Below, in pieces: positions 3,145 to 31,622 of a stretch of 32,811 bases of DNA. A program made the position numbers and the translations under genes. Origin of the DNA: a virus. Its lineage: Duplodnaviria; Heunggongvirae; Uroviricota; Caudoviricetes. Location of the stretch: the IMG/VR virus record IMGVR_UViG_2563366806_000002, one strand, 5' to 3'. The notes under the pieces were generated by a model. It saw only the letters and a program-made list of their open reading frames with translations, was not told where the DNA came from and did no database searches. Every line of letters starts with the position of its first letter. Positions within the stretch are counted from its first letter, which is position 1.

Positions 3145-3555
3145 GTGATGGGGGATAGGGTTATGAGTATCGGGCAAGAAAAACCAGTATCCGGGCGTCA
3201 GATGTTCCTTGAACAGCGCGCCCGTTTGCAGTCGAGCATTTCAGTTTCCCGCACCAATGACACGGCGAGCCGTTTTAATCGCCTGGGCGAGACTCAGAAA
3301 AAGGTGATCATCCTGCTGGCAAACGAAGCCGCGCAGCGGTTTAAGGATCTGCCGTCCCTGACTCATTCCCATCTCACTATGCCTTTCGAACAGTTCAGCT
3401 CTCAGGACAAAGTGAGCCTGATGTTGGGCATTAAGCGCCTTGCCGAGCTGGCTGCGGCGTTGCCGTGGGAGTTTCCCGATTATGCCGCGCCGCGCCTTGA
3501 AATTCAGGCGTTACGCGAATCACAACCACCCGCGCCGGATGGCGCAGTCAATTAG
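3145..3555 (+). CDS. Hypothetical early protein (start may be ATG at 3163)
   Basis: 136-aa ORF in the early operon; RBS GGGGGA precedes the internal ATG. Confidence 0.5.
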   Translation: MMGDRVMSIGQEKPVSGRQMFLEQRARLQSSISVSRTNDTASRFNRLGETQKKVIILLANEAAQRFKDLPSLTHSHLTMPFEQFSSQDKVSLMLGIKRLAELAAALPWEFPDYAAPRLEIQALRESQPPAPDGAVN

Positions 3556-3624
3556 CCACTGAATGATTAACCAGTAGTCAGGCGCATCACCGCGCCGGGC
3601 TTCCTGCACCCAGGAGAAAGCAAG

Positions 3625-4566
3625 ATGATTCGATCACTACTCAAATGGCCCGGTGGCAAAAGCCGCGTGATGCCTGAATTACTCCCGCATTTACCAAAGG
3701 CTGGTTGCCTCGTGGAGCCTTTTGTTGGCGGCGCTTCCGTGTTCCTCAATACCGATTATCGCCGCTATATCCTTGCGGATATCAACCCAGACCTGATCCG
3801 CCTTTATCGTGAGGTGAAGAGCAATCCTGAGCTGGTTATTGACCTTGCCCGCCCGCTCTTTGCGACCGGCAATTCCAAAGAGGAATACTTACAGAACCGC
3901 CGCATTTTCAACGGTACTAAAGGCTTGCTTGATGTGGCCCGCGCGGCTCTGTTTCTTTACCTCAACCGCCACGGCTACAACGGCGTGGTGCGTTACAACC
4001 AGAGCGGCGGTTATAACGTGCCGTTTGGTCAGCATAAAAGCGCGCCTTACTTCCCGGAGGCGGAGATCCGGCAGTTTGCTGAGAAGGCCAACGACACCAA
4101 AGCCATTTTCTTGTGCAGCTCGTTTCAAAATACCCTCAAAGTGATGGTTGGAACGGATGAAGCCATCTACTGCGATCCGCCATACCTGCCTGCCAGCGAA
4201 ACCGCCAATTTCACTCAATACCACACCGAGCCATTCACCGAGCAGCACCACCGCCAGTTAGCGGCGGAGCTGCTGGAAGTGAACCGCAAATATGGCGCGC
4301 CGGTTGTCATTTCCAACAGTGACACCGAAACCACCCGCGAGATTTACCACCGTTTCCGCCTGCATGAAATCGACGTGCAGCGCTCTGTTAGTACTGACGC
4401 CAGCAACCGCCAGAATGCTAAAGAGGTGATCGGCGTTCTCAAGGTATGCGAAGGGTGCGGGCGCGCGGGCGGAGGCAACTGCCCGGACTGCGGGCCGTGC
4501 TGTGGTGATGCCACTTACAACGCGATGGTTGCAGCGGGCGCTTTTGATGAGCAAGGGGGTTTCTGA
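3625..4566 (+). CDS. dam: Dam-family N6-adenine DNA methyltransferase with Cys-rich C-terminal tail
   Basis: Strong similarity to E. coli Dam (LKWPGGK, CLVEPFVGGASVFLNTD, LFLYLNRHGYNG, DPPY motif); extra tail CEGCGRAGGGNCPDCGPCCGD. Confidence 0.9.
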   Translation: MIRSLLKWPGGKSRVMPELLPHLPKAGCLVEPFVGGASVFLNTDYRRYILADINPDLIRLYREVKSNPELVIDLARPLFATGNSKEEYLQNRRIFNGTKGLLDVARAALFLYLNRHGYNGVVRYNQSGGYNVPFGQHKSAPYFPEAEIRQFAEKANDTKAIFLCSSFQNTLKVMVGTDEAIYCDPPYLPASETANFTQYHTEPFTEQHHRQLAAELLEVNRKYGAPVVISNSDTETTREIYHRFRLHEIDVQRSVSTDASNRQNAKEVIGVLKVCEGCGRAGGGNCPDCGPCCGDATYNAMVAAGAFDEQGGF

Positions 4567-4802
4567 TGGCGAGCTTAATTGAATTTTTAGAGGCGGTTGG
4601 TCTGGAAAATGTGACCGTTCAACCACTTCACCAGTGCATTACGGGCGTAGCGATGGAGAGAAAAGGCGGTGCCAAAGTCAGCTTTTTGACCAATGAAATA
4701 ACCCCATCTGATGCATTCGGAGAGATGAAAAGAACGGCGTTCATCGTCTGGATGGACGCTAAGAAGTTTGATGCCGCACTTGAAAAAACGAAGGGCAAAT
4801 GA
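4566..4802 (+). CDS. Hypothetical protein
   Basis: 78-aa ORF, stop/start overlap with dam (TGATG). Confidence 0.5.
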   Translation: MASLIEFLEAVGLENVTVQPLHQCITGVAMERKGGAKVSFLTNEITPSDAFGEMKRTAFIVWMDAKKFDAALEKTKGK

Positions 4803-5014
4803 GCATGAAACAGAATAAGAGCGCGGTTTTATCATCAATCCAAAATGTTGCTGTTTTCTTCAATTACGGCGGTGAAACAGTAGCGTTAAAAATGACAGCC
4901 GAACAAAAGAGAGTGATCGGCCTGTTTGCTATTTCAGCCGTTGAAGGTACTGCGGAACTGGTGCGGGTGCCTCATTTGTCATTACCAGCAGATCCAGAAA
5001 TGGAGGCTCTGTAA
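4799..5014 (+). CDS. Hypothetical protein
   Basis: 71-aa ORF, ATGA overlap with the upstream gene. Confidence 0.5.
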   Translation: MSMKQNKSAVLSSIQNVAVFFNYGGETVALKMTAEQKRVIGLFAISAVEGTAELVRVPHLSLPADPEMEAL

Positions 5015-5322
5015 TGTCAAAAATCTATATCGCTGGCCCAATGAGCGGTTTGCCTGGCTTTAATCGCCCGGCGTTTCACCGTGCAGCCGCGCACATTGTA
5101 CGGCGCGGAAATGTTGCTCTTAATCCGGCGATCCTGCCGGATGGCTTAGAGCAAGCGGAGTATGTGGATATCTGCCTTGCCATGCTTCGCTGCGCTGATG
5201 GCATCTTCATGCTGGACGGTTGGCAGCAGTCTGCTGGGGCAAAAGCAGAATACGCGCTTGCTGAAAAGTTGGGGCTGGATATTCAGCACCAGATGATTGA
5301 TCGGTACGTGGGCGCACGATGA
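5014..5322 (+). CDS. DUF4406-like (nucleoside 2-deoxyribosyltransferase-like) protein
   Basis: 102 aa, IYIAGPMSG motif; translationally coupled on both sides. Confidence 0.55.
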   Translation: MSKIYIAGPMSGLPGFNRPAFHRAAAHIVRRGNVALNPAILPDGLEQAEYVDICLAMLRCADGIFMLDGWQQSAGAKAEYALAEKLGLDIQHQMIDRYVGAR

Positions 5323-8957: not shown

Positions 8958-8965
8958 ATTTTCTG

Positions 8966-9080
8966 TAGAAATTGCCGCACAATCCCGCATTAAATTGCAC
9001 AATTTTTTTGACGGTACTTTTGCCAGACAAGCCCAGACGCGGCGCGGCCTGCCGTGATCTGCAAGTTTGCACAAAAAGAC
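8966..9080. repeat. Three direct (A)TTGC(A)CAA(T) repeats upstream of cos; candidate terminase/IHF recognition elements
   Basis: aaATTGCcgCACAAT, aaATTGCACAATtt, gTTTGCACAAAaa read from sequence. Confidence 0.35.
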
Positions 9081-12091: not shown

Positions 12092-12137
12092 GGTGGCAGA
12101 GTACCGCGCCCGCGCGCGCGTCGCTTCGGGTTGTCAT

Positions 12138-12155
12138 TGTCGGAAAACGGCAACA
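12138..12155. promoter_or_regulatory. TGT-N12-ACA dyad in the P/O divergent late promoter region (Ogr/Delta-type activator box candidate)
   Basis: TGTcggaaaacggcaACA read from sequence, 83 bp upstream of the O start. Confidence 0.45.
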
Positions 12156-12237
12156 ACGGCAACGCTTTGCGCGATCCGGCTGGGGCGGGAATGATAGAGG
12201 CACTGGTTAATATCATTCACTCATTCGGGATTTCGAC

Positions 12238-16183: not shown

Positions 16184-16565
16184 ATTTAAATTCAGTCAGA
16201 GAAGTGAAAATAACCTGAAAGGTGTTAACGCTGACCTTGTGAAAGTTGTCCGCCGCGCCCTTCAACTTTCCGCTGTTGATTTTGGTATCACCGAAGGGCT
16301 GCGCTCTGTAGAGCGGCAAAAACAGCTTGTTGCGGAAGGGAAAAGCCAGACGATGAACAGCAGGCACCTTTCAGGCCATGCGGTTGATGTGTTTGCGTAC
16401 CCAACCCCGGCAGGCTCATGGGACTGGAAATTTTACCAGCAGATTTCCGAAGCCTTCAAACAGGCGGGAAAAGAGCTAAATATCCCCATTGAGTGGGGCG
16501 GCGACTGGAAGACGCTGAAAGATGGCCCGCACTTCCAGCTTCCTTATGCGGCGTACCCTGCATGA
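16176..16565 (+). CDS. Endolysin, peptidase M15-type
   Basis: SRHLSGHAVDV and DGPHFQ metal-binding motifs; RBS AGGAAA before ATG 16176 (track ORF starts 16146). Confidence 0.8.
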   Translation: MSEFKFSQRSENNLKGVNADLVKVVRRALQLSAVDFGITEGLRSVERQKQLVAEGKSQTMNSRHLSGHAVDVFAYPTPAGSWDWKFYQQISEAFKQAGKELNIPIEWGGDWKTLKDGPHFQLPYAAYPA

Positions 16566-18201: not shown

Positions 18202-18293
18202 CCCATTTCTGCAGTACTGTTAAAAGTGACAGTGCTCGATGCTTTTTCCCGCCACTGTCATAACTGGCAGTGTCTGCCGGTACCACCCTCCAT

Positions 18294-18311
18294 TGTTACC
18301 AACCCCTGACA
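18294..18311. promoter_or_regulatory. TGT-N12-ACA dyad upstream of gpV (candidate late promoter activator box)
   Basis: TGTtaccaacccctgACA, centre 80 bp upstream of the V ATG. Confidence 0.45.
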
Positions 18312-18381
18312 ACGCCAGCGCGTTGCTTGCGCGCGCGTGGATCATGAAACTGGCTGTAAATTTAATAACGCAAGCCAGCTT

Positions 18382-20897: not shown

Positions 20898-22209
20898 ATA
20901 TTATGCCCTGCTAACCAATGTCGGGGCCGCGAAGCTGGCGAACGCTACGGCATTGGGTGAACAGGTTGAAATTACTCAGATGGCGGTAGGGGATGGCAAC
21001 GGCGCACTGCCGACGCCAAACCCTGCGCAGACTGCGCTTGTGCATGAGCTGCGCCGCGCGCCGCTCAATACGCTGACCATTGACCCGGTAAACACCAACC
21101 AGATTATTGCTGAGCAGGTGATCCCGGAAGACGTGGGCGGGTGGTGGATCCGTGAGATTGGCCTGTATGACAGCGACGGCGACATGATAGCCGTGGCGAA
21201 CTGCGCTGAAACCTATAAGCCGTTATTGCAGGAAGGTAGCGGACGTATGCAGGTTATTCGCGTCATTCTGATCGTCAGCAGTACCCAGGCGGTAACGCTC
21301 AAAATTGATCCGTCTGTGGTGCTGGCAACCCGGCAGTATGTTGATGACCAGATAATCCAGGTTAAAGCCTTCGTAGATCAGCAACTGGCGGCGCACATCG
21401 CAGCGGCAGACCCTCATAAACAATATGCACCCAAGGCAAGCCCGGCCCTGACGGGAACGCCTACAGCGCCGACTGCGGCGCAGACAGTGAATAATACGCA
21501 GATTGCCACAACGGGATTTGTGAAATCAGCAATTGCTGCACTGGTAGCATCATCCCCGGCTGCACTGGACACGCTGAATGAATTGGCGGCAGCGCTGGGA
21601 AATGATCCAAACTTTGCCACCACTGTAACGAATGCGCTGGCGGGTAAGCAGCCGCTTGATAGCACTTTAACTAATTTATCGGGAAAGACAGTTAACGGCA
21701 TTCTCCAATACCTTGGTTTGGGAGAAGGTTCGGCATTACCCGTTGGTGTGCCTGTTCCGTGGCCTTCAGCCACTCCGCCAACAGGCTGGCTGAAATGCAA
21801 TGGTGCGCCTTTTTCTGCCGAAGAGTATCCGGAACTGGCAAAAGTTTATCCGACAAATAAATTGCCAGATTTACGTGGTGAGTTTATTCGTGGCTGGGAT
21901 GATGAACGTGGTGTGGATAGTGGGCGAACTCTGCTTTCAGCGCAAGGAGATGCTATTCGAAACATTACTGGCGGTTTTGGTCAGTTGCGCGTAAACAGCG
22001 AAATAAATGCAATTGTTGATGTTCAAAGTGTGAGTGGTGCTTTTTACGGAGGTACCTCAGTCCGGAATAACATCAACGTATCTATGACATACGCTAATGA
22101 CCGAAATATCCGACAAGATGTTCACTTCTCGGCGGCAAATGTTGTTCCAACAGCAAATGAAAATCGTCCACGTAACATCACCTTTAATTATATTGTGAGG
22201 GCCGCATGA
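20887..22209 (+). CDS. H: Tail fibre protein (P2 gpH-like); GTG start; variable C-terminal domain begins near 21727
   Basis: N-terminus (ALLTNVGAAKLANATALGEQVEITQMAVGDGNG) matches P2 H; the C-terminal ~160 aa lie inside the candidate invertible segment. Confidence 0.85.
   Translation: MATKYYALLTNVGAAKLANATALGEQVEITQMAVGDGNGALPTPNPAQTALVHELRRAPLNTLTIDPVNTNQIIAEQVIPEDVGGWWIREIGLYDSDGDMIAVANCAETYKPLLQEGSGRMQVIRVILIVSSTQAVTLKIDPSVVLATRQYVDDQIIQVKAFVDQQLAAHIAAADPHKQYAPKASPALTGTPTAPTAAQTVNNTQIATTGFVKSAIAALVASSPAALDTLNELAAALGNDPNFATTVTNALAGKQPLDSTLTNLSGKTVNGILQYLGLGEGSALPVGVPVPWPSATPPTGWLKCNGAPFSAEEYPELAKVYPTNKLPDLRGEFIRGWDDERGVDSGRTLLSAQGDAIRNITGGFGQLRVNSEINAIVDVQSVSGAFYGGTSVRNNINVSMTYANDRNIRQDVHFSAANVVPTANENRPRNITFNYIVRAA
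21701..21726 (+). repeat. Candidate Gin/Hin/Cin/Pin-type inversion crossover site inside H (TTCTCCAATACC-TT-GGTTTGGGAGAA)
   Basis: 15-bp core TTGGTTTGGGAGAAG (21713..21727) recurs inverted at 23546..23560; right half matches the recalled gix half-site GGTTTTGGATAA at 10/12. Confidence 0.6.
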
Positions 22210-22811
22210 TGAATAAAGCTGTATTAAATAGTGAACTCATTGCCATAAAAGCGGGAGACATTATCATTTATAATTATGATGGTGAAACGCGTGAATATAT
22301 TTCTACATCAACTGAATATCTCGCTGTCGGCGTCGGTATTCCGGCATGTTCTTGTTTGGATGCACCAGGTACACATAAAGCTGGTTATGCAATCTGTCGC
22401 TCTGTAGATTTAAATTCATGGAAATATGTGCCAGATCATCGCGGTGAAATCGTCTATAGCACCGAAACAGGAGAATCGAAAGAAATCACAGCTCCGGGTG
22501 ATTATCCTGAAAATACAACCACTATCGCCCCGTTAACGCCATACGATGAATGGAATGGTGAGAAATGGGTGACAGATACCGAGGCACAGCATCGCGCCGC
22601 AGTAGACGCGGCAGAAGCACAGCGTCAGTCACTGATTGATACTGCAATGGCTTCCATTAGTCTGATTCAACTGAAATTACAGGCCGGGCGGAAACTGACG
22701 CAGGCAGAAACAACCCGGCTTAACGCTGTGCTGGATTACATTGACGCGGTGACGGCAACAGATACCAGCACCGCGCCGGATGTCATCTGGCCTGAACTGC
22801 CGGAGGAGTAG
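22206..22811 (+). CDS. Tail fibre assembly chaperone (gpG/Tfa-like)
   Basis: 201 aa; conserved Tfa C-terminal motif LDYIDAVTATDTSTAPDVIWPELP. Confidence 0.8.
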   Translation: MMNKAVLNSELIAIKAGDIIIYNYDGETREYISTSTEYLAVGVGIPACSCLDAPGTHKAGYAICRSVDLNSWKYVPDHRGEIVYSTETGESKEITAPGDYPENTTTIAPLTPYDEWNGEKWVTDTEAQHRAAVDAAEAQRQSLIDTAMASISLIQLKLQAGRKLTQAETTRLNAVLDYIDAVTATDTSTAPDVIWPELPEE

Positions 22812-23223
22812 GCCATTCAATATCTGGTGCACTGGAAGTATCGACCAGCTCCAGTGCGTCCAGATAATCCAGCCACAAATTATATTGCGCCAGTTCCTCA
22901 CCTTTCAGACGACCAATAGCCGCTTTACCAACCCATTGTCTACTGTTCATATAATCGTTGGCCTGATTAATCAATTGCTGCTTTTTAGTTTCGGCTGATG
23001 CAATTTGTTCTTCACGTGTTGGCGGTGGAACATCTGCCCATGCTGGCATTCCATCGTCTCCGGTAATTCTGTACTTACCGTCAGGCGGCGTATCATGGAA
23101 ATATTCCCTGAAAATAGCTTCGTCTATATCCACGCCTTTACCTTCGGGCCATTGGCCTTTTGCAGCGTAAACAGACTGGAGGGCATAAGGGTACGCCAGA
23201 TTATCAACATACAAATATTTCAT
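22783..23223 (-). CDS. Alternative tail fibre assembly chaperone (Tfa'), convergent with and overlapping the + strand tfa
   Basis: 146 aa with the same C-terminal motif LDYLDALELVDTSSAPDIEWP. Confidence 0.8.
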   Translation of the reverse strand: MKYLYVDNLAYPYALQSVYAAKGQWPEGKGVDIDEAIFREYFHDTPPDGKYRITGDDGMPAWADVPPPTREEQIASAETKKQQLINQANDYMNSRQWVGKAAIGRLKGEELAQYNLWLDYLDALELVDTSSAPDIEWPTPPAVQAR

Positions 23224-23225
23224 AA

Positions 23226-23555
23226 TTAACGCCCTTTCGCGTAGAAGGCTCCACCTTCAAAGCCATAGTTACAATGAGCAACGAAACCTGTTTTCGTCCA
23301 GTTAGTTGCGCCCCACATATTCCCACCACCAAAACCGCCGTCATATACAATCACTACGTCTGGCTCCTGCGTAAAAGGAATGGGGAAAGTCACATTTGTA
23401 GATACCGCCGCGGCGTTAGTCGGGAAATTAATTCTTCCCCACTGTTCAATTGAACCATCAGGCAATTTTTGCCAGCCAGATCCTGATGAATAAGCTGACA
23501 TGTCTGGTATCTGATTCGCCCCAGTCCCCACATTCCTTTTCGCCGCTTCTCCCAA
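23226..23555 (-). CDS. Start-less alternative tail-fibre C-terminal cassette (Hc')
   Basis: Gly-rich fibre-tip-like 109 aa; begins exactly at the shared GLGE junction found in H; no ATG or RBS of its own (track start is TTG). Confidence 0.7.
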   Translation of the reverse strand: MGEAAKRNVGTGANQIPDMSAYSSGSGWQKLPDGSIEQWGRINFPTNAAAVSTNVTFPIPFTQEPDVVIVYDGGFGGGNMWGATNWTKTGFVAHCNYGFEGGAFYAKGR

Positions 23556-23572
23556 ACCAACCTTTGATAGAA
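23546..23572 (-). repeat. Partner inversion crossover site at the 5' edge of the Hc' cassette (minus strand TTCTATCAAAGG-TT-GGTTTGGGAGAA)
   Basis: Perfect inverted copy of the 15-bp core in H. Confidence 0.6.
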
Positions 23573-23683
23573 GCTACAGCACCGCCATAAATGACCGTGC
23601 TGCAGCACGGTTAAAAGTGACGGTGCCCGATGATTTCGGTACCACACTGCCAACAATGAACGTGTTGGCCATAAAAAATAAAG

Positions 23684-24133
23684 TTAGAAATTCACCCCCG
23701 CTTTCACCATAGACAGCACATCATCGTTGGTAATTTCCGCCAGCTTCTCCCTGATATCCTCGCTGACCTTTTTCAGGGTGAGAGTAAAATCAATCTTCCG
23801 CGCTTTCCCGTCCTGAAAGAACTCAGTGCGATTCTGGGTTAACCCGTCGATCACATACATACCGTAAATCTTGCCGGTACCTTCAATCAGGGGCCAGGCT
23901 CTGCCGGTGTATGCCATTGTCTCCAGCGTAGTGAGCGACACATCGCCGCCGCTGATTTCCGGGTACAGCGTACCGGATAGCGTGATCGGCTCTTCATCCG
24001 GGCCTATGTACTGATAGCGCGGGGATTTCCCCACGCGATCGTTTTTGACGTGTCGCCATGTATTCGACTGGTTCGACGTCTGGTAGGGCGTCGTTTGCAG
24101 TGCAAACGGAAACATGCCCAATATCATCATCAT
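23684..24133 (-). CDS. U: Tail protein U
   Basis: 149-aa ORF after the tape measure on the minus strand; gpU-like. Confidence 0.85.
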   Translation of the reverse strand: MMMILGMFPFALQTTPYQTSNQSNTWRHVKNDRVGKSPRYQYIGPDEEPITLSGTLYPEISGGDVSLTTLETMAYTGRAWPLIEGTGKIYGMYVIDGLTQNRTEFFQDGKARKIDFTLTLKKVSEDIREKLAEITNDDVLSMVKAGVNF

Positions 24134-24144
24134 GGCTTTGCCCC

Positions 24145-27075
24145 TTATTCGTGGTCGGTCAGTTGCGAGCGTTTGCGCCGTGCGGCCTGCAGCTGGGCAA
24201 CGGTGAACTCTTCGCGGATGTGCTGGACAAGTTTTTGTTCATCCATCTGGCCCGCATCGTTGATGTTGATTTCAAAGTTAAACACGTCGCCGCCAGGCAT
24301 CAGCGCCGCGACGGAAGCCGCAGACGGAACCGCCGACACTGGAGAACGGGCGGCAGGCTGCTGAACACTGTACGGCAGCACCGAAGAAACGAGCGCGCCA
24401 GCCTGCTGCTGCATCCATGCTGTGAGTGATGGCACCTGCCGCTGAACCTGCTGCACCGGTTCGGCGTACCCGCCACGGATAGGAATGTACGGCTGCTTAT
24501 TCTTGAAGACGATTTCACCGGGGCCGTCTTTCTTCTCTGCCGTGTTGCTGGCGATTTTATCCAGACTACCGCTGATCTTAGGTGCGAGGTTTGCCGGGCC
24601 TTTCAGGTTATTGGCAAGCGCCTGCTGTTGCTGGCTCTGTTCGGTTTTTCGCTTCTGCTCCTTCTTCTCCTCTTCCTTCTTCGATTGCGCGGTGACGGCT
24701 TTCAGATCCCCGGCAAGCGTATCCGCCAGCCCGGTAAGTTTCTTCTGCGTGTTCACCTGCTCAACGGCTTTTTTGGCTCTCTCTGCCTGATCGGGGATCA
24801 AGCCCAGCTTTTCCAGCACCAGATCCAGACCTTTCCAGAGTTGTTCAACGGGCCATAGCACCAGTGAGATGGCCTCACCCACAATCTTGCCGAAGGACTC
24901 CCCGGCGCTGGTACAGGATTTAAGCGCCTCAGTGGAGAACTGGATCGGCTCAAACAGCTTTGTAAACCAGTCCCATACCGTACTGAGCGCGGAGATGATG
25001 GCGTCAAATATCGGTACCAGCGGTGAGAATACTGCGGAAACGATAGAAAAGATCGGCTGTAGCCCCTGCATCAGACCGGTGAAGAACCCGCTGAAAAACG
25101 CCTTGATAGGTTGCCAGAACTGGATGATCGCAATAGCGACGCCAGCAAACAGGGCAATCAGACCCCAGACTGGGGCAGAGATACCCGCCAGCAGCGTGAT
25201 CAGGGGGCCAAAGACCGCACGACCGGCAGTAAGTAGCGCCTGCATAGGCGAACCAGCCAGCCACTGAAACGCGCCGCCCAGCCGGGTGATGCTGGTCAGC
25301 AGCTTAGCGATCCCGCCTTCACCTGCCAGCGTGGTAAAGCTCAGGCGTACAAGGGCCATCGGGCCAAGAATTGCGCCCAGCGCCAGCATAAGCGAACCCA
25401 ACACCGTGAGAATGGCACCAATCGCGGCGACGGTCTTCATGATGGCGGCAACCAATGCCGGGTTGGCTTCAATCCAGCCCCGGATTGATTGCAGAACGCC
25501 GCCGACTGATTTCATAATCGCCATCATTGGCCCGCGCATGGTTTCGCCCAGCGCGCTGAAATTGTTGCCAAACTCAGCTTTGGTTATCTGCCACTGTGAT
25601 GAAAGGGAATCTTTATCAATATCGGATTCCCGCTTCATGGATCCTTTCGACGCGGTGCCGTGGGTTAATTCGAGCTGTCTGCGCAGCTCAGGAAGATTGT
25701 TGGCGACCTTTCTTACTGCCATGGCATATTCATCACCAAAAAGCTGAGTAAGAACGTTTAGTTGCTTGTCGTCGTCAAGCTTTTTGGTGGCTTCCATCAC
25801 CGCCATAATGGTGCCCATGGCGTCTTTTGCCATGTTCTTCTGCACCTTCTCCGCGCTCAGCCCCAGCGCGTCCAGACCTTCCATAAACCGATCCGGTTGC
25901 ACCATGGCGTTGCCCAACTCGCGCACCATCGCTTTAACAGCAGTACCAGCAGTCTCTGCGCCTTCACCAAGGCTCAGGAATGTAGACCCTAACGCCGCCG
26001 AGTTCTTATAGCCGAGCTGATCGGCAGTGCCGCCCACTCGCAACAGAACATCAATTATTTCGGAGCCTTTTGATTTGGCGTTATCGTCAAGATAGTTAAT
26101 GGCGTCGCCTAATTCGCCAATATTCTGTATTGGTACTTTGTACAGGCCTGCAATCTTACCCAGGCTTTCTGACAACTGATCGGCAGGCAGCTCAAATGCT
26201 TTTGAGGCCATGGCGGCAGTGTTGGCAAAATTCAGCAGATCTTTTTTCTGCTTCTGCCATGGATCATCGCTATTAGCCACGCCCATACGAGCGCCGCCCT
26301 CTACCAGCGCGGCATAATCAACCGCCCCGTTGGGCATGGGTAGATTTTCGGAAGCGTCTTTGATGGCCTTTTGCATCTCAGCAAACTGAGCTGTGCGGTT
26401 GCCGCTATCATCGCGCAGACCATTCACCTGTTTGGATACGCCCTTCATGGCGTCTTCCAGACTGCTGTAACTCTTGATAGCGGCGACGACAGGAGCTACT
26501 ACCGCCGCACCAGTCGCAGCGGTCTTCATGCCAGCGCTTTGCAGCTTCTCACCGGTTTCTTTGGCGCGAGCATAGCGGGCTTGCGCCTGAGTGACGGACT
26601 CAAGCCGCCGTTGTTGCTCAGTAAGCTGGCGGTTGTACTGCGCGGTGCGCTGGCTGATTTGTTCCGTTGCCCGGCTGGTGCTGCTGATCGCAATCCCTTC
26701 GCTGTAGAAGCTGGCGCGCAATTGATTAAGCTGGGCCTGTTCCGTTTTCTGCTGGGCTGTCAGGTTGCGGATCGCTGCCCGCTGCTGATTGAGGGCGGTA
26801 ACTTGCTCAGTGCTGCGCTGGCGTAGCGGGCCGAATGCCGCCGCCATTTCACGCGCCTGCGTCTTTGCCTGAGCCAGTTGATCGGTGGTCTTCTTATTGG
26901 CTGCGGTCAGCCGGTCAAAGCTGGAAGCCTGACGCTCAAGCCCTTTGATGCTGCTTTGCGTCTGCTTGATTTGAGAGGCCAGCGCGGCGGCGCTCTGGCG
27001 CGCCGCACTGACAGGGCGGGACATATTATTCAGGGCGCTGAAAGCAACCTGAATATTTAATTTGCGGTCTGCCAT
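24145..27075 (-). CDS. T: Tail tape measure protein (P2 gpT-like)
   Basis: 976 aa, coiled-coil and Gly/Ala-rich hydrophobic repeats typical of tape measures. Confidence 0.9.
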   Translation of the reverse strand: MADRKLNIQVAFSALNNMSRPVSAARQSAAALASQIKQTQSSIKGLERQASSFDRLTAANKKTTDQLAQAKTQAREMAAAFGPLRQRSTEQVTALNQQRAAIRNLTAQQKTEQAQLNQLRASFYSEGIAISSTSRATEQISQRTAQYNRQLTEQQRRLESVTQAQARYARAKETGEKLQSAGMKTAATGAAVVAPVVAAIKSYSSLEDAMKGVSKQVNGLRDDSGNRTAQFAEMQKAIKDASENLPMPNGAVDYAALVEGGARMGVANSDDPWQKQKKDLLNFANTAAMASKAFELPADQLSESLGKIAGLYKVPIQNIGELGDAINYLDDNAKSKGSEIIDVLLRVGGTADQLGYKNSAALGSTFLSLGEGAETAGTAVKAMVRELGNAMVQPDRFMEGLDALGLSAEKVQKNMAKDAMGTIMAVMEATKKLDDDKQLNVLTQLFGDEYAMAVRKVANNLPELRRQLELTHGTASKGSMKRESDIDKDSLSSQWQITKAEFGNNFSALGETMRGPMMAIMKSVGGVLQSIRGWIEANPALVAAIMKTVAAIGAILTVLGSLMLALGAILGPMALVRLSFTTLAGEGGIAKLLTSITRLGGAFQWLAGSPMQALLTAGRAVFGPLITLLAGISAPVWGLIALFAGVAIAIIQFWQPIKAFFSGFFTGLMQGLQPIFSIVSAVFSPLVPIFDAIISALSTVWDWFTKLFEPIQFSTEALKSCTSAGESFGKIVGEAISLVLWPVEQLWKGLDLVLEKLGLIPDQAERAKKAVEQVNTQKKLTGLADTLAGDLKAVTAQSKKEEEKKEQKRKTEQSQQQQALANNLKGPANLAPKISGSLDKIASNTAEKKDGPGEIVFKNKQPYIPIRGGYAEPVQQVQRQVPSLTAWMQQQAGALVSSVLPYSVQQPAARSPVSAVPSAASVAALMPGGDVFNFEININDAGQMDEQKLVQHIREEFTVAQLQAARRKRSQLTDHE

Positions 27076-27539
27076 TTATTGATCTCCGCCACTGCGCGCA
27101 GCGGCTTGATCACGCCATAACAGAAGTTCCTCTACCGTCATGGCGTCCATCTCCGCTGGTCGCCAGTGGAAAATGACGGCGATATCCGCCATTAAGTTTT
27201 CTATGCGTTCGCAGGGGCATCGGATGACGCGCTGCCCGTATCCGTCCCGCTCTGATCCGAAGGTGGTTGCAAAAAATCAACCACCGCATTGGCGAGCTGG
27301 CAGAAGTCCCACGTATCCATGCGGGCGATTTCGTCAGCGGTCAGCGCCGGGGCGGTAACGCGGGGCAGCAGAACAACCAGCGCATCATAATTCGACGTCA
27401 GAACGTCATAGACTTTTAAGCCACGCAGCGATCCGGCCTGCTTTAAGACTGGCGTGATCGTGATTTCGCTGATTGCCGTCTTGCCGCGAACGATAGGTGC
27501 ATTGAGCGTTACAACTTCTTTACCGGTTACTTTGGTCAT
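27076..27539 (-). CDS. Tail assembly chaperone E+E', product of a -1 programmed frameshift (about 155 aa)
   Basis: Slippery heptamer T TTT TTG in the E frame at 27270..27276; the -1 frame is open for 65 codons and stops at TAA 27076..27078, one base before the T start. Confidence 0.7.
27201..27539 (-). CDS. E: Tail assembly chaperone E
   Basis: 112-aa ORF immediately upstream of T. Confidence 0.8.
   Translation of the reverse strand: MTKVTGKEVVTLNAPIVRGKTAISEITITPVLKQAGSLRGLKVYDVLTSNYDALVVLLPRVTAPALTADEIARMDTWDFCQLANAVVDFLQPPSDQSGTDTGSASSDAPANA
27270..27276 (-). other. -1 ribosomal frameshift slippery site T_TTT_TTG
   Basis: Zero-frame codons GAT TTT TTG (D88 F89 L90 of E) verified by hand. 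Confidence 0.7.
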
Positions 27540-27553
27540 GGTGCGTTAATTCC

Positions 27554-28069
27554 TTATAAGCCAATGTTAGCGCGGTGTTTTTCCATCATGTCAACGCCGC
27601 CAACTTTGTAGATCATATTGAGCACATCAACTTCAATGATTTCTTCGCCGTTGATGGTCAGCTTGTAATAGGTATTTTTCAGGGTGTACTTATGGGAAGT
27701 GTCATCCCCGGTTTTGGACGTACCCGGATCCATCTCCGTGAAGCGCCCGCGCGTCTGGATTTCAACGGGTACCGCTTCGCCGGTTGAATCATCTTGGTAA
27801 GACCCGGCATAGCGTGTTTGCATACCATCGGCGGTGGCGATGCCCCATTTTTTAAGCAGCCCCGCATCCATGCCGCCAAGGGTGATATCCATATCCAGCG
27901 CCCCGGCATCAAAGCCGAGATCGACCGCGACAGAACCCGGCATACCACCGGCCTGATAATCCTCTGTTTTGCGGGTTAACTTCGCCGGGGTGATTTCCGG
28001 CACCATGCCGAAATAGTTATCCCCGTCAAAGAACATGTTGAAGTATTTAAGTTTTTTAGGCAGAGCCAT
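27554..28069 (-). CDS. FII: Tail tube protein (P2 gpFII-like)
   Basis: 171-aa ORF with tube-protein similarity, between sheath and E. Confidence 0.9.
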   Translation of the reverse strand: MALPKKLKYFNMFFDGDNYFGMVPEITPAKLTRKTEDYQAGGMPGSVAVDLGFDAGALDMDITLGGMDAGLLKKWGIATADGMQTRYAGSYQDDSTGEAVPVEIQTRGRFTEMDPGTSKTGDDTSHKYTLKNTYYKLTINGEEIIEVDVLNMIYKVGGVDMMEKHRANIGL

Positions 28070-28081
28070 ACGCGCCCCCGG

Positions 28082-29278
28082 TTAGTTATTCACTGCGCTG
28101 GAAAACGTAGCGAAGTATTCATCAGTGAACTCCTGCACCAGGCTGAGATTTTCCAGCGGCGGGACAGGCGTGTAGTTGTATTTGATGGTGAGCTGCCCGT
28201 TGCGCAGCGTTTCGCTGGTATTCGGTTCAGGGTCGTACCAGCAGCGCGCACCCAGCAGCTTGCCCGCCGTCACATAGGACGTCAGCTTGCGGTTGATACC
28301 GTCAACGATATCTTTCACCAGCGACGGGGTGAGCGGCTTATCAACATAGGAGAAGTGAGCCTCTGCCACGGTATCCGCCACAATCTGAGCGGTACGGGTG
28401 TAGCTCTCAAAAATGTAGGTTTCTTCGTCGCAGGTACGTGATCCCCAGATGCGATAACCATCCTGTTTGATCAGGGTGGTGATGCCTGCGGCGTTCAGCT
28501 CGTCCGCATCGGTATCGGTGCCCTGTAGGGTGAAATAGATATCGCGATCCATCCCCAGCACGTTATTCACCGGCACGTTGGAAATGGTTTTGTGCCATCC
28601 CTGCGTTGCGTCGATTTTTGCTCGCATCCCTACCGCATGAGCACCCACCGGCACGGTGGCGTTTGCTCCCGCGTTGGTGTCGTAGCAAATGAAGTTAGGC
28701 CAGATCACCATCATTTCACGTTGGGCAAAATTCTCGCGGTACGTCTTCGCCTCTGCGATGGTGTTGCAGCCATTCGCGGATACGTAAGCAAAGGCGCGCA
28801 GTTTCTCAGCCATCACACCGAGCTGCGCCGCCACTGGCTGAGTATCAAGGCCGGGAACGGCAAGCACACGCGGGCGGACGCCAACACGCATCTCAGCCGA
28901 TAGCAGCGCATACATGCCGGTGAAAAGCCCGGTATCTGGGTCAGTACCGCCAATAACCAGTTGATCCTGCGTTGGGGCCGTGCCGCCTTCCGGGGGTACG
29001 ATTTTGGACGCATCAGCCACGCGGATCACAATGGTCTGTGGGCTGGTCTGGTCTGAAATGGCTTTCAGAGTGGTGAACAGGGTGCCGGTTTTGCCTGCTT
29101 TGCCCAGCATGTTAGCCACGCGGGTAATGAGTACAGGGGTATCCAGCGGGAAAGCTTCTTCGTCTGCATCGTCAGCGATACAAACGACGCCGATAACCGC
29201 CGAATCAATATCGGTGATCATCGTGCTCAGATCGGTGGTTTCCGTGACGGTTACACCGTGATGGTAATTTGTGGCCAT
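28082..29278 (-). CDS. FI: Tail sheath protein (P2 gpFI-like); ATG at 29278 (track ORF begins at TTG 29299)
   Basis: N-terminus MATNYHHGVTV parallels P2 FI MSDYHHGVQV; conserved C-terminus YTPVPPLENLSL. Confidence 0.9.
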   Translation of the reverse strand: MATNYHHGVTVTETTDLSTMITDIDSAVIGVVCIADDADEEAFPLDTPVLITRVANMLGKAGKTGTLFTTLKAISDQTSPQTIVIRVADASKIVPPEGGTAPTQDQLVIGGTDPDTGLFTGMYALLSAEMRVGVRPRVLAVPGLDTQPVAAQLGVMAEKLRAFAYVSANGCNTIAEAKTYRENFAQREMMVIWPNFICYDTNAGANATVPVGAHAVGMRAKIDATQGWHKTISNVPVNNVLGMDRDIYFTLQGTDTDADELNAAGITTLIKQDGYRIWGSRTCDEETYIFESYTRTAQIVADTVAEAHFSYVDKPLTPSLVKDIVDGINRKLTSYVTAGKLLGARCWYDPEPNTSETLRNGQLTIKYNYTPVPPLENLSLVQEFTDEYFATFSSAVNN

Positions 29279-29351
29279 GTAGTTGCCTCGCCAGGTCAAT
29301 GATTGCCACTTATCATTGCGACAATTGCCAGCCGGTGCGAGAGGTGGGCGT

Positions 29352-29369
29352 TGTCAGCAGACCGCAACA
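29352..29369. promoter_or_regulatory. TGT-N12-ACA dyad centred between the divergent FI and D starts (candidate shared late activator box)
   Basis: TGTcagcagaccgcaACA; 82 bp from the FI ATG and 80 bp from the D ATG. Confidence 0.45.
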
Positions 29370-29439
29370 ACAGCCACGCGTTGTCTGTACGCGCGCGCGT
29401 GGCGACGATGGTACCCTCACCAATGAGGGAACCAATAAG

Positions 29440-30567
29440 ATGTTGGATGATGATGCGCGTTATTCGCCCCGCCCGGCGTTCAGTATTCAGATTGAGGGCA
29501 AGCAGCTCACCGCGCTGGATGACCGTTTGATCTCGTTGTCGCTGACGGACAATCGGGGATTTGAAGCGGATACGCTTGATCTCACGCTGGATGATTCAGA
29601 CGGACAGATCGTTATGCCATCGCGTGGCGCGAAGATTTCCGTTTCGCTGGGCTGGGATAATGACCCGCTGATATTTAAAGGACTGTACACCGTTGATGAG
29701 GTTGCGCACCGTGGCCCGCCTGATCAGCTCACAATCAGCGCCCGCAGCGCAGACTTTCGCGACACGTTCAACGTGAAGCGTGAATATTCCTGGCACGATA
29801 TTACCGTGGGCGATGTGGTTGCCAGTATCGCCAGCCGGTACGACCTGCGAGCCGGGGTGAGTGAGGAACTGGCGAAGATTGAGATCGATCACGCAGACCA
29901 GACCAGTGAATCAGATATCAGCTTTCTCACCAGAATGGCGGATATGCTGGGTGCGGTTGCCACCGTTAAAAATGGCATGTTGCTGTTCATCACGCCGGGG
30001 CAGGGCTTAACCCAAAGCGGTAAACCATTACCGGCGATCAGCATTGTGCGGGCCAGCGGCGATAAGCACAGCTTTAGCATTGCCGATCGTGATGCTTATA
30101 CCGGCGTTACTGCCTACTGGCTGGATCTAAATTTCGGGAAGAAGCCTGCCACCACGGTACAGACAAACACCCGCAGACGCCGCAGAACAACCCAGCCGAA
30201 GAAGCCGAAAGAACCCGCCTCAAGCAGCAAAGAAGGGGATTACATGGCAGGCGCGGAAGGCAACGTATTCGTGATCCGCAAGACGTTCAAAACCGAGAAG
30301 GCAGCGAAGCGGGCAGCGGCGGCGAAGTGGAGCCAGTTACAGCGTGGCGCGGCGTCATTCTCCATCACGCTGGCGCGGGGCCGGGCGGATTTGTACCCGG
30401 AACAACCGGCAAGCGTATCGGGCTTTAAGTCCACGATTGATAACGGTTACTGGACGATTACCCGATGTGTGCATGATATCGGCAGCGGCGGCTTTACCAC
30501 CTCGCTGGAGCTGGAAGTTAAGATCGATGAATGGACGGCTGAGGCGGGTGACGAATCAACGGGTTAA
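29440..30567 (+). CDS. D: Tail protein D (P2 gpD-like, late control D family)
   Basis: ATG 29440 with RBS GAGGGA; N-terminus MLDDDARYSPRPAFSIQ is gpD-like (track ORF begins upstream at TTG 29269). Confidence 0.9.
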   Translation: MLDDDARYSPRPAFSIQIEGKQLTALDDRLISLSLTDNRGFEADTLDLTLDDSDGQIVMPSRGAKISVSLGWDNDPLIFKGLYTVDEVAHRGPPDQLTISARSADFRDTFNVKREYSWHDITVGDVVASIASRYDLRAGVSEELAKIEIDHADQTSESDISFLTRMADMLGAVATVKNGMLLFITPGQGLTQSGKPLPAISIVRASGDKHSFSIADRDAYTGVTAYWLDLNFGKKPATTVQTNTRRRRRTTQPKKPKEPASSSKEGDYMAGAEGNVFVIRKTFKTEKAAKRAAAAKWSQLQRGAASFSITLARGRADLYPEQPASVSGFKSTIDNGYWTITRCVHDIGSGGFTTSLELEVKIDEWTAEAGDESTG

Positions 30568-30613
30568 GCGTTATACTTGACGTGATATTAACCAGCCCAG
30601 AGGAGGCCCGCGT

Positions 30614-30856
30614 ATGGCAATGCGCTGTCCTCGCTGCCGTGCAGTTGCGAAAACTCGTACCAGTGTAGAGTTGAGTGATTTAGTGCGACGCAGTTATCAC
30701 CAGTGTCAAAACATGTTGTGCGGCTACTGCTTTACCAGCATGACGCAAATAGACGAATCATTAAACCAGACTCAGCCAGTCCCCGGCGCGGTGGTTCCTC
30801 AAGACGTTTTCCCGCGAAGTCATCACGGCGAAGATCAGCTTAGTCTGGTGTTGTAG
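30614..30856 (+). CDS. ogr: Ogr/Delta-family zinc-finger late transcription activator
   Basis: CPRC...YHQCQNMLCGYCF matches the Ogr zinc-finger pattern CPLC...YHQCQNVNC. Confidence 0.85.
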   Translation: MAMRCPRCRAVAKTRTSVELSDLVRRSYHQCQNMLCGYCFTSMTQIDESLNQTQPVPGAVVPQDVFPRSHHGEDQLSLVL

Positions 30857-30870
30857 TTTCGAAGCAAGGC

Positions 30871-30900
30871 AAAAGCCTGCCGGACAGGCAGGCTTATTGT
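30871..30900. terminator. Bidirectional hairpin terminator between ogr and the convergent downstream gene
   Basis: AGCCTGCC-ggaca-GGCAGGCT stem, A-run on one side and T-rich on the other. Confidence 0.6.
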
Positions 30901-31622
30901 TATTGCAGTTCTTTCAGTTCAACAATCTTACCAGTGGCTATATCTACTTTAGCGGAAACGGTGTTTTTTACCGTTGCCCCAAGAGCATTTGCGCCACGGA
31001 ATGTTGTCACAAATACTGCATATGGTTTTTTGTCTTTCTCAAACATTAATTGATGGGTGGTTTTGATATGTTTGTAGGATGAGTCATCGTTCATCTGTTC
31101 TTTGATCGCGACCTCTAAGGGGTAGTAGACGCCGTTATAGTCGCTCAGCATTTCATCGAAATTATCAAAATTTATACGGTCAGAAAGAGATGTTGCATCG
31201 CGGGTAAAATCTGAGTAACACCAATCAAGCACTTGATCGAGGTGTAGTTCTTCCGATTTTCTATGAGAATATTCGCTTAGGCAGTTGTAGAAGTCATTAC
31301 GTGCAGATTCAGGGATCTTTTTAAATTTAACATACGAGTTAACAATTTCGCGTCTGTCTTCCTTATCGTTCTTAACTCTCCATTCCTTTAGTGATAAATC
31401 GGCGTATTTAAATTTTTCTTCTTTAATCGGTGGGCGTTCTTGAGCGTTGCTTGAGGTAGAAGGGCGTAAACTGGCCCCTATTGCAGCAACGACTAAGCAC
31501 ATTGAGAAGTAGAAAAGAGACGATTTTTTTCTGTTTGGCATGAAAACCCACTTTGGATTTATAAGCCCGATCCAGAAAGCGATACCGGCTATCGCTGCAA
31601 TGATAGTGATGATTTTTTCCAT
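30900..31622 (-). CDS. AT-rich membrane-anchored protein of unknown function (candidate cargo/moron)
   Basis: 240 aa; two N-terminal hydrophobic helices then a charged soluble domain; strong RBS GGAGGG; clearly lower GC than flanking DNA. Confidence 0.6.
   Translation of the reverse strand: MEKIITIIAAIAGIAFWIGLINPKWVFMPNRKKSSLFYFSMCLVVAAIGASLRPSTSSNAQERPPIKEEKFKYADLSLKEWRVKNDKEDRREIVNSYVKFKKIPESARNDFYNCLSEYSHRKSEELHLDQVLDWCYSDFTRDATSLSDRINFDNFDEMLSDYNGVYYPLEVAIKEQMNDDSSYKHIKTTHQLMFEKDKKPYAVFVTTFRGANALGATVKNTVSAKVDIATGKIVELKELQ

Follow-up and report, generated by a model that had tools for sequence, protein, structure and literature searches.

Gene Content and Orientation of the Tail Region

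The DNA analyzed here, IMG/VR record IMGVR_UViG_2563366806_000002 (hereafter the window, meaning the whole stretch of 32,811 nucleotides), is a P2-like (Peduoviridae) Escherichia coli prophage inserted next to the host gene fieF, which forms the right end of the window. The subject of this work is its tail gene block, in which the minus strand carries U, T, E/E', FII, and FI and the plus strand carries D and ogr. The layout is that of a complete-looking prophage and contains an integrase at the left end, Q/P, O-N-M-L, the lysis genes, R-S, V-W-J-I-H-G, the tail block, D, and ogr. The features of the tail region are listed in Table 1.

The opposed strands and the 161-bp gap between FI and D had been described in an earlier note made from the sequence alone, and both are confirmed by Pfam searches, by the gene ends in RefSeq, and by comparison with P2. 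The RefSeq annotation of the near-identical prophage in the E. coli chromosome ECONIH4 has gene ends that coincide with those of the window after mapping (offset 18487). Pfam domains identify the sheath, the tube, gpU, gpD, the tape measure protein, and the Ogr/Delta zinc finger, which together correspond to a P2-type contractile tail module. The E' extension is also confirmed: its slippery heptamer is the frameshift heptamer annotated in P2, and the -1 frame is open to the start codon of T.

In the P2 genome (NC_001895), one and the same strand carries FI, FII, E, E+E', T, U, D, and ogr, and the annotation treats them as one F operon, in which D is last, overlaps U, and has no promoter before it. 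The window contains the same genes, the same E/E' frameshift heptamer, and the same geometry of the PF promoter; however, it does not have a single F operon, as U (-) and D (+, 29440) are 5.3 kb apart and D diverges from FI across a gap of 161 nt (29279-29439).

Table 1. Features of the tail region of the prophage (positions in the window).
Feature	Position	Strand	Evidence or remark
Left junction, where the V-operon/tail-fibre module meets the U 3' end	23561-23683		48-nt palindrome and one copy of a 37-nt repeat
U, tail protein	23684-24133	-	Pfam PF06995 Phage_P2_GpU, E=1.8e-41; same ends in ECONIH4 RefSeq coding sequence (CDS)
T, tape measure	24145-27075	-	Pfam PF10145 PhageMin_Tail; RefSeq 'phage tail tape measure protein'
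E' extension, -1 frameshift from E	27076-27276	-	slippery TTTTTTG at 27276-27270; open -1 frame
E, tail assembly chaperone	27201-27539	-	Pfam PF10109, weak, E=4e-4; 79-80% identity to SEN5 E (tblastn)
FII, tail tube	27554-28069	-	Pfam PF04985, E=1.2e-63
FI, tail sheath	28082-29278	-	Pfam PF04984, PF17482, PF22671; RefSeq CDS ends concur
Predicted PF -10, AATGAT	29312-29317	-	35 nt from dyad edge; predicted start ~29305
Activator dyad of the Ogr type, TGTCAGCAGACCGCAACA (TGT-N12-ACA), in the middle of the FI-D gap	29352-29369		exact match
D-side promoter motif TTGTCTGTA-CGCGCGCGCG	29381-29399	+	very similar to the PV promoter of the window
Predicted PD -10, GACGAT	29404-29409	+	35 nt from dyad edge; predicted start ~29416
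D, baseplate hub, 'late control D'	29440-30567	+	Pfam PF05954 Phage_GPD; RefSeq start codon concurs
ogr, late activator	30614-30856	+	Pfam PF04606 Ogr_Delta zinc finger, E=3e-14

The Same Order in Other Genomes and Phages

Three independent complete E. coli chromosomes, ECONIH4, NA3664, and CAVP776, match the query at essentially 100% and have the same gene order; for ECONIH4, a detailed alignment gave 99.9% identity outside the tail-fibre segment. A probe across the FI-D junction was matched over at least 80% of its length by 31 of 5426 complete E. coli genomes. The identical strand pattern is present in the Salmonella phages SEN4/SEN5 (Senquatrovirus), in P88 (Xuanwuvirus), in the Klebsiella phage 3LV2017 (Reginaelenavirus), and in a 6-kb fragment of the Serratia phage KSP20. 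SEN4/5 (PMC5261728) and P88 (PMC6456863) are functional phages, viable and plaque-forming or inducible. Proteins at least 60% identical to the D protein of the window are found in 47 phage records.

A survey of a one-genome-per-species collection was based on alignment of the D protein, which gave 80 loci, and eleven window proteins were then placed at these loci by tblastn. The inverted arrangement (U- T- E- FII- FI- opposite D+ ogr+) was found at 33 loci, all with a D protein at least 61% identical to that of the window, and the colinear P2 order at the other 47, all with a D protein at most 57% identical to it. The inverted loci are spread over the Enterobacterales and belong to Dryocola, Enterobacter, Hafnia, Citrobacter, Salmonella, Pectobacterium, Yersinia, Photorhabdus, Xenorhabdus, Providencia, Morganella, Brenneria, Kosakonia, Klebsiella, Edwardsiella, Serratia, and others. 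The window shares with this inverted-tail-block lineage of Peduoviridae the strands of the genes, the divergence of FI and D, a gap of ~150-165 nt, and the clustering of the tail proteins. One inverted locus, L027, is on a contig labelled Vagococcus sp. WN89Y, a Firmicute, and carries a P88-type enterobacterial prophage with a layout almost identical to that of the Salmonella locus L033; this assembly is likely contaminated or mislabelled.

The SEN4/5 phages have the same organization as the window, V W J I H followed by U T E' E FII FI (-) and then D and ogr (+), with ~77-80% nucleotide identity across the tail block. They also share the central dyad, the -10 hexamers, and the palindrome beside the 3' end of U, whereas their tail-fibre module, early region, and host are different. 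In addition, SEN5 lacks an invertible segment, having only a 3' remnant of the invertase gene, and its left junction contains a canonical hairpin-plus-T-run terminator. The late genes of the window are 73-77% identical to those of SEN4, and large parts of the early region and the tail-fibre module remained unaligned; the ICTV criterion for Senquatrovirus is at least 70% whole-genome nucleotide identity to SEN4. In the RefSeq record of SEN5 (L001), a minus-strand open reading frame (ORF) of 120 nt at 22007-22126 is labelled 'late control protein ogr'. A tblastn search places the SEN5 ogr homologue (89% identical) on the plus strand, with its start at L001 21889, and judging by this match the label looks like an annotation slip.

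The P88, 3LV2017, and KSP20 phages are remoter relatives, in which FI and D also diverge, the block from U to FI is opposite to D, and D is 62-64% identical to that of the window. P88, like the window with its putative one, carries an invertible tail-fibre segment immediately to the left of U; it retains a DNA invertase and has a TCT...ACA half-site variant instead of the perfect dyad.

Phylogeny of the Tail Proteins

Reference phages were added to the survey loci, and neighbor-joining trees were constructed for several proteins. The trees of D, FI, FII, and U each contain one clean split between 40 inverted and 47 colinear members, with the window on the inverted side in all four. The colinear order is also present in the Pseudomonas phage phiCTX and, according to the gene table, in the Burkholderia phage KS5 (PMC3091744). 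The arrangement is almost certainly an ancient trait of the lineage, and the simplest reading of these comparisons would be one old inversion in the lineage ancestor.

The gene order of the lineage is already known, in that it is visible in the annotated public records of three ICTV genera. No discussion of the inversion was found in the literature on SEN4/5, P88, Citrobacter PhiSM, Xenorhabdus xnp1, and Burkholderia P2-like phages or in a comparison of Peduoviridae, and no paper describing a promoter region shared by FI and D was found in the same literature; for both, a prior description is possible.

The FI-D Gap and Its Predicted Late Promoters

P2 has four Ogr-dependent late promoters, and Ogr binds a dyad with the consensus TGT-N12-ACA (PMC3931495). 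Exact matches to this consensus occur six times in the window, which is not above chance; three of the six are in control regions, namely one at 12138 between P and O, one at 18294 upstream of V, and that of the FI-D gap. Further exact matches at 8964-8981, near the Q-proximal accessory region, and at 16307-16324, in the lysis region, may be chance matches.

The centre of the FI-D dyad is 82.5 nt from the ATG of FI and 79.5 nt from the ATG of D, and the PF site of P2 is 83 nt from the ATG of FI. Among 18 non-redundant FI-D gaps of the relatives, 15 contain a perfect dyad, with 0.70 expected by chance, and these dyads are always 74.5-85.5 nt from the ATG of FI, despite strong divergence of the surrounding sequence. 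Moreover, in all 29 distinct dyad-bearing sequences, a NANNAT hexamer is present on both sides at +35 (rarely +36) from the dyad edge. In the window, PO, PP, and PV likewise have a NANNNT hexamer at exactly +35.

These distances agree with those in P2, where the mapped starts of PF, PO, and PP are 47-48 nt and the -10 elements are 35-41 nt from the dyad edge. When the P2 spacing is applied to the gap, the starts predicted in Table 1 are 111 bp apart, with leaders of 27 nt for FI and 24 nt for D. The dyad thus has the form of an Ogr/Delta late promoter, with its centre ~55 nt upstream of the predicted start, as derived from a -10 at +35-40. The P2 record contains a comparable region, where two divergent starts, also 111 bp apart, flank one 'activator binding site; pO, pP promoters'. 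The FI-D gap and the P2 PP/PO region are alike in having one central Ogr/Delta-type site and a mirror geometry; however, the gap controls sheath and tube versus hub rather than packaging versus capsid, and its starts are predicted only.

The two halves of the gap resemble different late promoters of the window. The D side (GCGTTG...CGCGCGCGTGG) is a near copy of the PV promoter, and the FI side (CCGGCTGG...AATGATA) resembles PO. The CGCGCGCG tract occurs at four sites in the window, three of which are 17-20 nt past the PP, PV, and PD dyads. As an additional observation, two classes can be distinguished by sequence among the late promoters, PP, PV, and PD with this tract (12111-12120, 18330-18337, and 29390-29399) and PO and PF with CCGGCTGG...AATGATA; the tract is also found in PF of colinear relatives.

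A generic scan for sigma-70 promoters was uninformative (7 matches versus 8.6 expected). The terminator scan revealed no hairpin between D and ogr and a terminator-like hairpin after ogr, at 30873-30895; transcripts from PD would therefore probably run into ogr, as P2 F-operon transcripts do.

The same spacing can be applied to the P/O gap of the window (12092-12237). From its single dyad (12138-12155), the leftward start is predicted at ~12091, on the A of the start codon of the longest P ORF; by this prediction, either the P mRNA would be leaderless or P would start at the in-frame ATG 12052. In the P2 record, the start of the V operon is placed on the V start codon.

Junctions of the Inverted Block

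The left breakpoint had been placed at ~23640-23683 in the earlier note, and this fits the present comparison: the homology shared by the relatives stops at 23626-23645 and restarts at the stop codon of U, at 23684. The right breakpoint, proposed at 29279-29350, has to be moved, as this stretch is the retained core promoter of PF, with the spacing between dyad and FI given above for the window and P2. In addition, Xenorhabdus members keep, on the FI side, the 'GCGTG' and 'AACATAGGCAC' (-10 region) motifs of the colinear PF. Since the FI side keeps both the spacing and the motifs of PF, the promoter and its dyad moved together with FI, and the right junction is in the interval between the dyad and D, 29370-29439.

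The note had also regarded a promoter-like element at the left breakpoint as a leftover of the inversion. The repeat on which this was based exists: the 37-nt direct repeat 18209-18245/23600-23636 (86% identity) is the best direct repeat of the window. Its right copy makes up one half of a 48-nt palindrome (23579-23626), and the palindrome region has strong folds on either strand (z=-4.6 and z=-6.2). The interpretation of the repeat and palindrome as a scar of the inversion was rejected. This element has no dyad and no -10; a blastn-short search found the palindrome core beside U in 10 of 35 inverted loci, mainly in the SEN4-like subclade, and the inversion is far older than this subclade-limited distribution. 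Its position is that of the P2 O- and V-operon terminators, and it is better read as an inter-operon (operon-end) element.

The copies of the repeat (18209-18245 and 23579-23645) come after the stop codon of S and after the tail-fibre segment, and their folds beat those of shuffled controls (z=-3.1 to -6.2). Neither a T-run after the repeat hairpins nor a canonical hairpin-plus-T-run terminator at the left junction was evident by eye in the folds. Another partial copy is present in SEN5 (L001 31149-31173). The repeat may be an operon-end or RNA-stability element. Related copies are found 35-50 nt upstream of late-promoter dyads, at PV in the window and at PF in the colinear loci L068 and L083, and on this ground it would not be unreasonable to regard the repeat as a spacer that once preceded PF, but the points given above speak against a scar. 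A degenerate dyad, TGT-N12-ATA, noticed by eye at 23663-23680, matches the consensus at 5/6 positions; such a match is expected by chance about once per five such regions, and it was given no weight.

The Adjacent Tail-Fibre Segment

Directly left of U, the region 21713-23560 is bounded by perfect 15-nt inverted repeats, TTGGTTTGGGAGAAG (21713-21727 and 23546-23560), which we take to resemble cix/pix crossover sites. It contains a pair of oppositely directed tail-fibre assembly genes, 22206-22811 (+) and 22783-23223 (-), together with an alternative fibre C-terminus, 23226-23555 (-), and by its sequence looks like an invertible tail-fibre segment. In the ECONIH4 prophage (L002), the corresponding segment, 3214-5073, has the opposite orientation and ~89-90% identity to that of the window, while the flanks are 99.94% identical. 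Because the segment differs within identical flanks, it was flipped and/or exchanged in an otherwise identical prophage. There is no invertase gene beside the segment in the window, where U comes directly after it; an invertase is encoded between the tail-fibre segment and U in the related prophage L003 and in P88, and only the 3' end of the invertase gene is left at this place in SEN5.

Proposed Mechanism and Alternatives

In the ancestor of the lineage, the segment containing the PF promoter, FI, FII, E/E', T, and U would have been inverted once, with D and ogr left in place, and this would have severed D from the F operon. As D would be off PF and read-through from the V operon would face 5.6 kb of antisense sequence, D would need a promoter inside the 161-nt gap. 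The loss appears to be compensated by a bidirectional late promoter built around one palindromic Ogr-binding dyad. From this single site, Ogr would activate both the original PF leftward, with the start at ~29305 and a transcript covering FI to U, and a new PD rightward, with the start at ~29416 and a transcript covering D and probably continuing into ogr. At the far end, the F operon, running leftward, converges with the rightward V/tail-fibre operon within the palindrome-rich left junction.

The probability of this explanation as a whole, lineage inversion together with a bidirectional Ogr promoter, is estimated at about 0.8. The gene order, its distribution, and the geometry of the sequence are observed; Ogr binding, both start sites, and the co-transcription of D and ogr we infer from them. 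An Ogr-dependent promoter that shares the central dyad is the likely driver of D. With somewhat less confidence, we favor the view that an inversion end just outside the palindromic site of PF made a one-way promoter two-way, and that this promoter was co-opted for the orphaned D (and for ogr by read-through), with the -10 elements kept clade-wide.

Several points weigh against this interpretation. The tree of the baseplate protein J does not contain the split between inverted and colinear phages, which is expected because these phages are mosaic. The trees are simple neighbor-joining trees with midpoint rooting and without support values. The dyads of P2 itself are imperfect, and a perfect dyad is thus not strictly diagnostic; P88-type phages and the loci L016/L019 and L032/L034 have TCT...ACA or another palindrome in its place. 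The dependence on Ogr and both start sites are themselves predictions. Finally, the origin of the core promoter on the D side could be either de novo or a copy of a PV-like promoter.

The earlier note had considered an inversion of about 5.6 kb or a lineage with this arrangement, and the second alternative is the correct one, as indicated by the named phages, the species survey, and the trees of the tail genes. A recent inversion specific to this strain and an error of assembly have nothing in their favor beyond the difference from P2. The same order in three complete E. coli genomes, in 31 of 5426 E. coli genomes, in three ICTV genera, and in 33 species-level genomes from many genera leaves a negligible chance for either, and independent complete genomes and isolated phages sharing the order rule out misassembly. 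The comparison of synteny with P2-like genomes, which that note had proposed, found the order to be common in a described P2-like clade, the outcome that the note itself had named as counting against its proposal. Another explanation, that the 5.6-kb block is a programmed segment flipped by an invertase of the Gin/Cin/Pin type, draws on its surroundings: the putative invertible tail-fibre segment with its crossover sites adjoins the block on the left, and an invertase gene is present in relatives precisely at the left junction. However, no inverted repeats or crossover-like sites were found flanking the block, in which it differs from segments of the Gin/Cin/Hin/Pin type, and all 40 inverted-lineage loci share one orientation, so the block is not a switch. 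As its orientation tracks phylogeny and the window has no invertase next to the tail-fibre segment, programmed flipping is hardly credible.

The direction of the change and the control of D leave more room for alternatives. Midpoint rooting and a split that by itself gives no direction would permit the inverted order to be ancestral for enterobacterial P2-like phages, the colinear FETUD order of P2 having arisen by re-inversion. This is very improbable given that P2, 47 enterobacterial loci, phiCTX, and Burkholderia KS5 are colinear, that the PF spacing and motifs are retained on the FI side of the gap, and that U and D overlap in P2, which is expected of the original operon. It is also conceivable, if unlikely, that the dyad serves PF only and D is transcribed from an Ogr-independent promoter in the gap, constitutive or otherwise regulated, or by another route. 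A weak sigma-70-like -35 (TTGTCT) is located 17 nt upstream of GACGAT, and ogr has its own promoter-like site at 30548-30577, which indicates that independent promoters occur nearby. Against this, the -10 on the D side holds its 35-nt offset in 29/29 distinct relatives despite diverged surroundings, the sequence on that side is a close match to the PV late promoter, one site in P2 already serves two divergent late promoters, and D is a structural tail gene needed late. The shared Ogr site thus preferred for D is a small variation on the PP/PO design of P2 and not a new kind of system.

Accessory Genes of the Prophage

Outside the tail region, the early region encodes a TerB-domain protein (2464-2895, +) and a Dam-like adenine methyltransferase of the D12 class (3625-4566, +). 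Between ogr and the end of the prophage near fieF, there is an ORF of 240 aa (30900-31622, -), for which no match was found in Pfam or PADLOC. In the related prophage L003, its place is taken by a different ORF of 648 nt; this position is a variable cargo locus.

Significance of the Inverted Arrangement

The inversion is real but ordinary, in the sense that the prophage belongs to a known lineage. The divergence of FI (-) and D (+) in P2-like prophages can be used as a marker of this lineage and should not be taken as a sign of misassembly or of a degraded prophage. As a character of synteny, it separates Senquatrovirus, Xuanwuvirus, Reginaelenavirus, and many unnamed prophages, including those of Xenorhabdus and Photorhabdus, from P2, 186, and Fels-2-type phages. 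If the proposed mechanism is true, an essential gene cut off by an inversion would have been re-expressed via an already existing palindromic activator site, which makes a testable case; nature would here offer a clear instance in which the symmetry of an activator site rescued a split operon.

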